Shown here: positions 31,602-44,703 of the stretch, in pieces
Layout: every line of letters begins with the position of its first letter
Numbering within the stretch: position 1 is the stretch's first letter
Source of the DNA: Escherichia coli
GTDB taxonomy: Bacteria; Pseudomonadota; Gammaproteobacteria; Enterobacterales; Enterobacteriaceae
Assembly: GCF_041886205.1 (NCBI RefSeq)
Contig: NZ_CP169029.1
Direction: 5' to 3' (one strand)
Length of the DNA stretch: 64,000 bases
Made by a program: the position numbers and the translations under genes
Notes under the pieces: model-generated
What the model was told of the DNA's origin: nothing
Databases searched by the model: none
What the model saw: the letters and a program-made list of their open reading frames with translations, nothing else

Positions 31602-33626
<2,025 letters not shown>

Positions 33627-39687: not shown

Positions 39688-41877
39688 ATGTTTGTGGAGC
39701 ATAACCTGATAAAAAATATCAAGATATTCACACTAGCGTTTACGCTCACCGTGGTACTTATTCAGCTATCCCGTTTTATTTCGCCACTTGCCATTATCCA
39801 TTCCAGTTATATCTTTCTGGCGTGGATGCCACTGTGCGTAATGCTGTCAATCTTGTTTATCTTTGGCTGGCGCGGTGTCGTTCCCGTTTTATGCGGGATG
39901 TTTTGCACCAATCTGTGGAACTTTCATCTCTCTTTTTTACAGACTGCGGTCATGCTCGGTAGCCAGACGTTTGTCGTGTTGTGTGCCTGCGCAATATTAC
40001 GCTGGCAGCTGGGGACGCGTTGGCGTTATGGATTGACCAGCCGATATGTCTGGCAACGTCTGTTCTGGCTTGGTTTGGTGACGCCGATCGGCATCAAATG
40101 CAGCATGTATCTTGTGGGGAGCTTCTTTGATTTCCCGCTAAAGATATCCACCTTTTTCGGCGATGCGGATGCCATTTTCACGGTTGTTGATTTACTAAGC
40201 CTTTTCACCGCTGTGCTGATTTACAACATGCTTTTCTACTATCTCACTCGCATGATTGTAAGTCCCCACTTTGCGCAGATATTGTGGCGCAGGGATATCG
40301 CGCCGTCGTTGGGCAAAGAGAAACGCGCATTTACCTTAAGCTGGCTGGCAGCGTTAAGCGTGCTGCTACTTCTGTTGTGCACACCTTATGAAAACGACTT
40401 TATTGCCGGTTACCTGGTACCCGTTTTCTTCATCATCTTTACCCTCGGGGTCGGTAAGCTTCGCTATCCGTTTTTAAATCTCACCTGGGCTGTTTCAACG
40501 CTTTGCCTTCTGAATTACAACCAGAACTTTTTGCAAGGGGTGGAAACCGAATATTCGCTGGCATTTATTCTCGCGGTGCTGATTTCCTTTAGCGTTTGCC
40601 TGCTCTATATGGTGCGCATTTATCATCGCAGTGAATGGCTTAATCGCCGCTGGCATTTGCAGGCGCTGACAGATCCGTTAACGCTCCTACCCAACTTTCG
40701 TGCGTTGGAACAAGCGCCGGAGCAAGAGGCGGGCAAGAGTTTTTGCTGCCTGCGCATTGATAATCTTGAGTTTATGAGTCGTCATTACGGCTTAATGATG
40801 CGCGTTCACTGTATCCGCTCAATTTGCCGTACGCTGCTGCCGTTGATGCAGGAAAACGAAAAGTTATATCAATTGCCTGGTAGTGAACTGCTGTTAGTGC
40901 TGAGCGGGCCGGAAACGGAAGGGCGACTCCAGCATATGGTTAACATCCTGAATAGTCGGCAAATTCACTGGAACAATACCGGGCTGGATATGGGCTATGG
41001 TGCTGCCTGGGGGCGTTTTGATGGAAATCAGGAAACCCTGCAACCCTTGTTGGGGCAGTTAAGCTGGCTGGCGGAGCAATCCTGCGCACAACATCATGTG
41101 CTGGCGCTGGATAGCAGAGAGGAGATGGTTTCCGGGCAGACCACTAAACAAGTGCTATTGCTGAATACCATTCGCGCGGCGTTAGATCAGGGGGATTTGC
41201 TGCTCTACGCCCAGCCCATTCGCAACAAAGAGGGTGAAGGTTATGATGAGATCCTCGCGCGACTGAAATATGACGGCGGCATTATGACCCCGGATAAGTT
41301 TCTGCCCCTTATTGCTCAGTTTAACCTTAGCGCGCGTTTTGATTTGCAAGTGCTGGAATCCCTGTTGAAGTGGCTTGCAACACACCCTTGCGACAAAAAA
41401 GGTCCACGCTTTTCAGTCAATTTAATGCCGCTCACGCTGCTGCAAAAGAATATTGCCGGGCGGATTATTCGTCTATTTAAGCGTTATCACATCTCCCCGC
41501 AGGCGGTCATTCTTGAGATCACCGAGGAGCAGGCGTTTTCTAACGCAGAAAGCAGCATGTACAACATCGAGCAGCTGCATAAGTTTGGTTTCCGGATTGC
41601 GATTGATGACTTTGGCACCGGCTATGCCAACTACGAACGGTTAAAGCGTTTGCAGGCTGATATCATCAAAATTGATGGCGTCTTTGTGAAAGATATCGTC
41701 ACGAACACGCTGGATGCGATGATTGTGAGATCAATTACCGATCTGGCGAAAGCGAAGTCATTGAGTGTGGTCGCGGAGTTTGTCGAGACGCAACAGCAGC
41801 AGGCGCTATTGCATAAGCTCGGGGTGCAATATCTGCAAGGGTATTTGATTGGTCGCCCGCAGCCATTAGCTGATTAA
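39688..41877 (+). CDS. pdeA: Membrane-anchored GGDEF/EAL-domain c-di-GMP phosphodiesterase YfeA/PdeA
   Basis: ORF track 39628..41877; ATG at 39688 gives 729 aa; N-terminal TM segments, C-terminal EAL domain (EVTE ... DDFGTGYA). Confidence 0.82.
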   Translation: MFVEHNLIKNIKIFTLAFTLTVVLIQLSRFISPLAIIHSSYIFLAWMPLCVMLSILFIFGWRGVVPVLCGMFCTNLWNFHLSFLQTAVMLGSQTFVVLCACAILRWQLGTRWRYGLTSRYVWQRLFWLGLVTPIGIKCSMYLVGSFFDFPLKISTFFGDADAIFTVVDLLSLFTAVLIYNMLFYYLTRMIVSPHFAQILWRRDIAPSLGKEKRAFTLSWLAALSVLLLLLCTPYENDFIAGYLVPVFFIIFTLGVGKLRYPFLNLTWAVSTLCLLNYNQNFLQGVETEYSLAFILAVLISFSVCLLYMVRIYHRSEWLNRRWHLQALTDPLTLLPNFRALEQAPEQEAGKSFCCLRIDNLEFMSRHYGLMMRVHCIRSICRTLLPLMQENEKLYQLPGSELLLVLSGPETEGRLQHMVNILNSRQIHWNNTGLDMGYGAAWGRFDGNQETLQPLLGQLSWLAEQSCAQHHVLALDSREEMVSGQTTKQVLLLNTIRAALDQGDLLLYAQPIRNKEGEGYDEILARLKYDGGIMTPDKFLPLIAQFNLSARFDLQVLESLLKWLATHPCDKKGPRFSVNLMPLTLLQKNIAGRIIRLFKRYHISPQAVILEITEEQAFSNAESSMYNIEQLHKFGFRIAIDDFGTGYANYERLKRLQADIIKIDGVFVKDIVTNTLDAMIVRSITDLAKAKSLSVVAEFVETQQQQALLHKLGVQYLQGYLIGRPQPLAD

Positions 41878-41884
41878 CAGGCGT

Positions 41885-41917
41885 AAAAAAGCCGGGGAAT
41901 TATCCCCGGCTTTTTTA
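41885..41917. terminator. Bidirectional intrinsic terminator between convergent pdeA and nupC
   Basis: Hairpin GCCGGGG-AATTATC-CCCGGC flanked by A6 and T6. Confidence 0.75.
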
Positions 41918-41926
41918 TGTATGGTC

Positions 41927-43129
41927 TTACAGCACCAGTGCTGCGATTGACGCCGACAGCACACTCACCAGGGTAGAGCCGTAAACCAGTTTCAGACCGA
42001 AGCGAGAAACCACGTTACCTTGCTCTTCATTCAGGCCTTTAACTGCACCTGCGATAATCCCGATTGAAGAGAAGTTAGCGAAGGAAACCAGGAACACAGA
42101 GATGATGCCTTCAGCACGCGGAGAGAGCGTGGAAGCAATTTTCTGCAGATCCATCATCGCAACGAACTCGTTGGAAACCAGTTTGGTCGCCATGATACTG
42201 CCCACTTGCAGTGCTTCACTGGAAGGAACACCCATCACCCATGCAATCGGATAGAAGATGTAGCCCAGGATGCCCTGGAAGGAGATGCTGTAGCCAAACC
42301 AGCCAGTCACAGTAGCAAACAGTGCGTTCAGTGCGGCGATCAGGGCGATAAAGCCGATCAGCATCGCGGCAACGATAATGGCAACCTTGAAACCTGCCAG
42401 AATGTATTCACCCAGCATTTCGAAGAAGCTCTGACCTTCGTGCAGGTTGGACATCTGAATGTTTTCTTCACTGGCATCAACACGGTAAGGGTTGATCAGC
42501 GACAGCACGATAAAGGTGCTGAACATGTTCAGTACCAGCGCCGCAACGACATATTTCGGCTCCAGCATGGTCATGTATGCACCAACGATGGACATAGATA
42601 CGGTGGACATCGCCGTTGCTGCCATGGTGTACATACGATTGCGGGAGATTTTGCCGAGGATGTCTTTATAGGCAATAAAGTTTTCAGACTGACCCAGAAT
42701 CAGGGAGCTGACGGCGTTAAAGGATTCCAGTTTGCCCATGCCGTTGACTTTGGAGAGCAGGAAACCAATTGCGCGGATAATCACCGGCAACACGCGAATG
42801 TGCTGGAGAATACCGATCAGTGCAGAGATAAAGACGATTGGGCACAGCACTTTCAGGAAGAAGAATGCCAGGCCTTGATCATTCATGCTACCAAAGACGA
42901 AGTTAGTCCCTTCGTTGGCAAATCCGAGCAGTTTTTCGAACATTTCGGAGAAGCCTTTCACGAAGCCTAAACCAACGTCGGAGTTCAGGAAGAACCACGC
43001 CAGTAACACTTCGATAACAAGCAGTTGAATAACATAACGGATACGAATTTTTTTGCGGTCGCTGCTTACCAGCAGTGCGAGAATCGCAACAACGGCAAGT
43101 GCCAGTACAAAATGAAGGACGCGGTCCAT
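41927..43129 (-). CDS. nupC: Nucleoside:H+ symporter NupC (CNT family)
   Basis: ORF track 41927..43168; ATG at 43129 gives 400 aa ([17 protein letters not shown]). Confidence 0.9.
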
Positions 43130-43395
43130 ATTTGCTCCAAATATGAGGCAGGTTAAATTTCCGTGCACATTCTATGTAACATGGTTAAGGAAAACGAGAT
43201 CTGACACACACTATAATGACGTCCTGTGACAAGCTTCAAAAATAGTGATCTGTCATACATTTCTGCTATGTTGTGTATGGGAGCTGAAAGTTATGTAAAT
43301 GTGCTAACATTAAACATAACCATAACATTCAAGTCATCAATCTTTTCGTAGTCATAATCCTGGTCTATCAAAGAAATCACCACAACCCATTTAAA

Positions 43396-43414
43396 TGAAT
43401 TTGATAATCATTCT
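43396..43414. promoter_or_regulatory. Fur box-like site upstream of mntH (TGAATTTGATAATCATTCT)
   Basis: Resembles GATAATGATAATCATTATC consensus; mntH is known to be Fur-regulated. Confidence 0.5.
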
Positions 43415-43430
43415 CGTTTGGCATAGCATG

Positions 43431-43452
43431 AAACATAGCAAAGGCTATGTTT
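43431..43452. promoter_or_regulatory. MntR operator: perfect palindrome AAACATAGC-AAAG-GCTATGTTT overlapping the mntH promoter
   Basis: 9-bp perfect inverted repeat 13 nt upstream of the mntH ATG; matches the MntR box as I recall it. Confidence 0.6.
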
Positions 43453-43455
43453 TAG

Positions 43456-44703
<1,248 letters not shown>

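Follow-up and report, generated by a model that had tools for sequence, protein, structure and literature searches.

It has been known for over two decades how the manganese transporter gene mntH is regulated: import of manganese is on only when iron and manganese are both scarce, and it is boosted by peroxide via OxyR. Patzer and Hantke (2001) are said to have seen DNase I protection by MntR, dependent on Mn2+, across an almost perfect palindrome of the mntH operator, and to have used operator titration in vivo to place the Fur site inside a stretch of 22 nt. In Salmonella, Kehres et al. (2002) reportedly put an inverted repeat after the likely -10 and ahead of the ribosome-binding site. These accounts agree with the layout found here, and the mntH promoter of E. 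coli K-12 and Salmonella (Patzer & Hantke 2001, Kehres et al. 2000/2002) is the same locus with the same elements and the same logic. The E. coli promoter has separate MntR, Fur and OxyR sites, with Fur and MntR repressing independently (PMC8632737). The gene is described as repressed by Fur and MntR and activated by OxyR (PMC8632737, PMC4207228, PMC4361602), the OxyR site being carried by the mntH promoter itself (PMC8632737, PMC4207228), and the promoter is repressed in vivo when Mn2+ plus Fe2+ are added (PMC4191405). Besides mntH, the known targets of MntR are mntS and mntP (PMC4207228).

The window, by which we mean the whole stretch of 64,000 nucleotides that was analysed, is E. coli chromosome. 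In it, 601 bases around the operator region are 100% identical to several complete genomes, and of 5426 complete E. coli genomes, 5424 contain this 601-base segment. According to the list of open reading frames and the RefSeq annotation, the gene order is nupC (minus strand, annotated start ATG at 43129), mntH, ypeC. Compared with K-12, nothing of substance differs: there are a few upstream SNPs, the mntH promoters have two differing bases in an aligned 130 nt, both upstream of the Fur box, and everything from the Fur box through the palindrome is identical. The window is also without the IS186 that K-12 has beside nupC, and the source strain is therefore not K-12. The ends of the yfeA and nupC reading frames are only ~50 nt apart here (41877-41927); in K-12 MG1655, IS186C comes immediately after nupC.

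Operators and predicted promoter upstream of mntH

Positions 43354-43464 are almost certainly the mntH regulatory region, made up of a sigma-70 promoter flanked by two independent metal-dependent repressor sites, with an OxyR-like site upstream (Table 1). The sequence of the operator region reads ...AATGAATTTGATAATCATTCTCGTTTGGCATAGCATGAAACATAGCAAAGGCTATGTTTTAGAGGCACAAGATG. Conservation was judged from 80 mntH loci of different Enterobacteriaceae species (MntH identity 89-99%), for which the 170 nt upstream of each ATG were aligned.

Table 1. Features of the mntH upstream region in the window, with identities to the window from the alignment of 80 species
Feature	Positions	Strand	Identity to window	Basis and remarks
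Far upstream DNA	43295-43353		31%	
OxyR-like site	43354-43390 (about)	+	63%	Four elements 11 nt apart: ATAA / CTAT / ATCA / CCAT
ypeD small ORF (b4819)	43395-43484	+		29 codons, 29 aa; RefSeq annotation (K-12 and others)
Fur box GAATTTGATAATCATTCTC (Fe2+-Fur operator)	43397-43415	+	92% (mean column identity)	15/19 to consensus, conservation, published prediction and ChIP-exo peak
Predicted -35, TTGATA	43401-43406	+		Promoter scan; inside Fur box; in 80/80 species
Spacer between Fur box and -10			57%	
Predicted -10, TAGCAT	43424-43429	+	93%	Promoter scan, 17-nt spacer; ends 2 nt before palindrome
Candidate MntR operator (palindrome)	43431-43452	.	95.5%	Perfect palindrome, unique in window, conserved, core common to other MntR targets
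Palindrome, left arm AAACATAGC	43431-43439		100%	Kept in 80/80 species
Palindrome, spacer AAAG	43440-43443		99.7%	Kept in 79/80 species
Palindrome, right arm GCTATGTTT	43444-43452		89% (column identity)	
Predicted transcription start	43435-43437 (~43436)	+		Inferred, 6-8 nt downstream of predicted -10; inside left arm
mntH Shine-Dalgarno sequence AGAGG	43454-43458	+		From sequence; largely conserved across species
mntH CDS	43465-44703	+		Nramp-family Mn2+/H+ symporter, 412 aa; ORF list, RefSeq annotation of identical E. coli sequence

The original prediction described a perfect palindrome with an AAAG spacer upstream of mntH, followed by a Shine-Dalgarno sequence, and a perfect 9+4+9 inverted repeat is indeed present there, 1 nt before the Shine-Dalgarno sequence. 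Between it and the ATG of mntH are 12 bases (43453-43464); the distance had been given as 13 nt, which is right within counting convention. The pattern AAACATAGC-N4-GCTATGTTT is matched at 18/18 positions only at mntH, and the next best site in the 64 kb reaches 13/18; Markov-1 random windows contain a mean of 0.4 matches of at least 14/18 per 64 kb. As a class, perfect inverted repeats with 9-nt arms are not rare, as the window has ~13 such sites, mostly GC-rich and terminator-like, and the case for the mntH palindrome therefore rests on its sequence, position and conservation, not on symmetry alone. In K-12 the core ATAGC-N4-GCTAT is found again at the 5' end of rybA/mntS (AGATATAGCACAGGCTATATTA, 14/18) and twice upstream of mntP, ~40 bp apart (GAATTTAGCCAAAGCTATGTTT and AGACATAGCTTAGGCTATATTA, 15/18 each). 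This makes three core matches of at least 14/18 in the 9.5 kb of K-12 examined, against ~0.06 expected from the shuffle rate. The mntH copy is the best of the E. coli MntR-type sites compared and the only perfect one. In addition to this inverted-repeat core common to the MntR regulon, the palindrome has a position compatible with repression, given the predicted start: it begins 2 nt beyond the predicted -10, the predicted +1 falls within it, and a repressor bound there would overlap the core promoter and leader, as was originally proposed. Motif and position together support the palindrome as the putative MntR operator.

Further copies of the half-site were seen upstream, where TGCTATGTT (43264-43272) is a perfect 9-nt match to one arm and AAACATAACC (43312-43321) a 9/10 match. 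Both are probably chance occurrences or relics, since they lie in poorly conserved DNA. The half-site-like CATAGC at 43422-43427 overlaps the -10.

As a check on both sites, the original prediction had suggested motif scans and a comparison with the published footprints of the mntH promoter. Consensus scans return the palindrome pattern at 18/18 and, upstream of it, the Fur-like box that had been predicted: GAATTTGATAATCATTCTC shares 15 of its 19 bases with the 19-bp Fur consensus GATAATGATAATCATTATC, a score tied for best in the window, and there are two matches of at least 15/19 in the window versus none in 20 Markov-shuffled windows. The distance from box to palindrome had been put at about 20 nt, and here the prediction was slightly off, as 15 nt separate the two edges and 35.5 bp the two centres. 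Published data point to the same sequence. Chen et al. (2007) predicted a Fur cluster at mntH (K-12 U00096.2 2510784, -56 from the ATG), consisting of 2 predicted sites over 25 bp with 19.9 bits (PMC2189734), and this position is 43409 in the window, within the Fur box. The mntH Fur ChIP-exo peak P75 of Gao et al. (2023), at U00096.2 2510767-2510798 (PMC10164565 supplement), maps to 43395-43426 when converted with ATG = 2510728, and for Fur the comparison with published binding thus places occupancy directly on the box. That study counts mntH in the core Fur regulon across nine strains and finds it derepressed in their fur deletion mutants (PMC10164565), and Beauchene et al. (2015) have shown that a mntH promoter-lacZ fusion is repressed by Fur (PMC4676285). 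The box is thus close to the consensus and overlaps the core promoter, itself predicted, and published data add occupancy in vivo and Fur-dependent expression (PMC10164565, PMC4676285). The assignment of 43397-43415 as a Fur operator is supported.

The other 15/19 Fur-like match in the window, GATAAAGATATTCATGATG (31659-31677, minus strand), falls in the coding sequence of ligA, in its 5' part, and was set aside as most likely a chance match.

A probable third input, of OxyR type, is located just upstream (~43354-43390) and was missed by the original prediction. The site ends 10 nt before the -35, and its core CTATCAAAGAAATCA (~43365-43379) is conserved, mostly at 90% or more in the 80 species. 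It is the best intergenic match to the OxyR consensus but reaches only 13/20, a score that is not significant by itself, since 24 matches just as good occur in the window.

A consensus scan finds a single plus-strand sigma-70-like promoter in the region. On this model the Fur box would contain the -35 and the palindrome would span the start site, an arrangement that refines the original account. The table of transcription starts of Kim et al. (2012) lists only two weak mntH starts on the plus strand, at window positions 43318 (5 reads) and 43279 (11 reads). They precede the ATG by 147 and 186 nt and also lie upstream of all three regulator sites, and no promoter-like hexamers passed for them in the promoter scan. 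A proximal mntH start is missing from the same table, and it is likely that this is because the regulated promoter was repressed in the media used. The available part of the Cappable-seq supplement has no entry near the mntH locus. In one study a plasmid-borne PmntH-egfp biosensor gave no signal (PMC9806134), a null result that says little about the chromosomal mntH promoter.

Conservation and alternative readings

Across the 80 species the -10 always has the form TAnnnT, as TAGCAT (53), TAGCTT (11), TAATAT (6), TAACAT (5), TAGTTT (3) or TAGCCT (2). The three positions most important for sigma-70 are invariant and the middle bases drift, and the spacer between -35 and -10 is 16 or 17 nt. A related picture is seen within E. 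coli, where identity over the 81 nt surrounding the operators is only 90-95% in 310 complete genomes. When two divergent E. coli strains are aligned, the changes are found in the spacer between Fur box and -10 and in the middle of the -10, and they spare the Fur core and the palindrome.

It is worth adding that, in the two strains aligned, changes cluster between Fur box and palindrome, making 43416-43430 a polymorphic hot spot within E. coli. In strain DCE7, CGTTTGGCATAGCATG has become CAATTAACGTAACATA, so that the -10 differs in its middle (TAACAT instead of TAGCAT) and both operators are untouched.

Conservation of this kind could have other causes. If selection acted on the promoter only, the "Fur box" would amount to a -35 conserved in AT-rich DNA, and the palindrome to a conserved initial transcribed region, with no repressor bound to these exact bases. 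It is true that the box holds the -35 and that the -10 adjoins the palindrome, and in these places promoter and operator constraint overlap. However, conservation extends well beyond the hexamers, to a 13-nt core, TTGATAATCATTC, and to the 22-nt palindrome including its spacer; the ChIP-exo peak P75 maps onto the box; the palindrome motif is common to other MntR targets, which would be unexpected from promoter constraint; and repression dependent on Fur and on MntR has been published. We regard an explanation by the promoter alone as extremely improbable. The palindrome could also act as RNA instead of as protein-binding DNA, its 9-bp leader hairpin serving for attenuation, stabilisation or translational control. 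The isolated 22-mer folds at -9.3 kcal/mol (z = -5.8), as expected for any palindrome; it stands 1 nt before the Shine-Dalgarno sequence, with a U following; and transcripts from the weak starts at 43279 and 43318 would hold the whole hairpin. The main transcript, on the other hand, cannot form the stem if it begins at the predicted start (~43436), which is inside the left arm, and a leader beginning there shows no unusual structure (z = +0.78). There is no covariation in the 80 species: the left arm is identical in all 80, and the right arm has an uncompensated G to A change, giving a C-A mismatch, in 60, and T to C or T to A changes in 16. The scan gave no terminator-like site and no Rfam family was matched, and at mntP the same motif is found upstream of promoters and not in a comparable leader. 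The region does not have the properties of a structured leader RNA (riboswitch, attenuator or terminator), and on fold statistics, covariation and Rfam together the hairpin reading was rejected; we consider it very unlikely to be right.

Another alternative concerns the small protein YpeD, whose reading frame overlaps the Fur box, the -10, the palindrome, the Shine-Dalgarno motif and the initial 20 nt of mntH. Selection on this protein could conserve 43395-43484 and leave the Fur-like and palindromic sequences incidental. The gene is annotated in K-12 and other RefSeq genomes, and YpeD has been picked up by ribosome profiling (Ribo-RET/Ribo-Api), in a report that also calls it conserved in Salmonella and Citrobacter koseri (bioRxiv 10.1101/2021.07.02.450978). 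Yet a reading frame that starts just upstream of the -35 and reads through KHSKGY exists in only 21 of the 80 species, and a stop codon interrupts it even in closely related Escherichia. Every species with a -35/-10 spacer of 16 nt, not 17, has lost it, and all 80 retain the DNA motifs. The conserved peptide core KHSKGY is itself the palindrome translated. Moreover, the ypeD ATG (43395) is upstream of the predicted -35, so that the regulated transcript cannot encode YpeD, which therefore needs a transcript from an upstream start; the weak starts at 43279 and 43318 could supply one. With the frame lost in 59 of 80 species, the coding explanation was rejected and is held to be highly improbable. 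The reported conservation of YpeD is probably better explained by the operators that it overlaps than by selection on the peptide.

A different possibility is that the starts at 43279 and 43318 give a long-leader mntH transcript which escapes occlusion. The hairpin next to the Shine-Dalgarno sequence, or translation of ypeD, whose stop overlaps the mntH start, or both, would then tune translation of mntH, or else Fur and MntR would act as roadblocks to read-through. This may concern those lineages that keep both the ORF and a perfect palindrome (Escherichia, Salmonella, Citrobacter). Nothing was found that supports a post-transcriptional or roadblock role of the mntH operator DNA, and we give the idea only a slim chance. 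The reading as two metal-dependent operators on one promoter is the one we follow below.

Sequence features on the nupC side

Some features of the divergent nupC side of the region may be of use to others. A perfect 8+3+8 palindrome, CATATTTG-GAG-CAAATATG in the minus-strand reading (43127-43145), contains both the nupC Shine-Dalgarno sequence (GGAG) and the start codon. It is identical in 55 of the 80 species and matches at 18/19 or better in 70; the RNA would fold into a weak hairpin (-4.1 kcal/mol by itself) masking the AUG. Another Fur ChIP-exo peak, P76 (U00096.2 2511044-2511073, no assigned target; PMC10164565), maps to ~43120-43149, onto this palindrome, and the best Fur-consensus match there is only 9/19. 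The predicted nupC promoter on the minus strand is TTGAAG-18-TATAGT, from 43239 to 43210, and it is bracketed by a direct repeat, AAAACGAGATCTGACACACA (43191-43210) and AAATAGTGATCTGTCATACA (43240-43259), the copies being 49 nt apart. Read on the minus strand the repeats are TGTGTGTCAGATCTCG and TGTATGACAGATCACT, and they resemble putative CRP-type half-sites. The nupC gene is controlled by CRP and CytR, and CRP-type half-sites might be expected there.

Proposed regulation and comparison with known promoters

The arrangement suggests the following mechanism. Fe2+-Fur, or Mn2+-Fur at high manganese, would bind 43397-43415, and since the Fur box contains the predicted -35, bound Fur would exclude RNA polymerase. 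A dimer of Mn2+-MntR, a member of the DtxR family, would bind 43431-43452, about -6 to +17 on the predicted numbering, and would block polymerase binding or open-complex formation, and promoter escape. Each metal alone would lower transcription, and full expression would require both to be scarce. OxyR at ~43354-43390, placed like a class I activator, would activate the same promoter under H2O2. Repression by Fe2+ would depend on TGATAATCATT, and repression by Mn2+ on ATAGC/GCTAT. The exact start site, and therefore the steric mechanism, is something that we infer, as the proximal start is a predicted one. For expression dependent on Fur, MntR and OxyR we rely on the literature; the sequences themselves, their distinctness and conservation, the motif common to MntR targets and the mapping of Fur occupancy come from this analysis. 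The Fur box, the palindrome motif, the ChIP-exo data and the published repression by Fur and MntR all agree with the iron and manganese co-regulation of mntH that was originally read from the DNA.

The dual operator of mntH is already known, having been published since 2000-2002. The value of the case is mainly as a positive control, in which a reading of raw sequence located and interpreted a real, characterised dual metalloregulator operator. A mildly useful by-product is that the conservation of the recently annotated YpeD can be attributed to the operators.

Among the relatives of the mntH operators, the MntR site of E. coli mntS/rybA shares ATAGC-N4-GCTAT and overlaps the 5' end of its own transcript, which is consistent with repression. 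The two mntP sites, unlike that of mntH, mediate activation according to the literature and are ~400 bp upstream of the ATG. The classical Fur-repressed promoters (fhuA, fepA, entC) resemble mntH, itself in the core Fur regulon, in having a match to the 19-bp Fur box that overlaps the core promoter. The Fur cluster of mntH is single and short, and several other promoters in the table of Chen et al. (2007) have up to 10 sites (PMC2189734). Unlike the classical Fur promoters, mntH combines its Fur box with a second, non-Fur metalloregulator.
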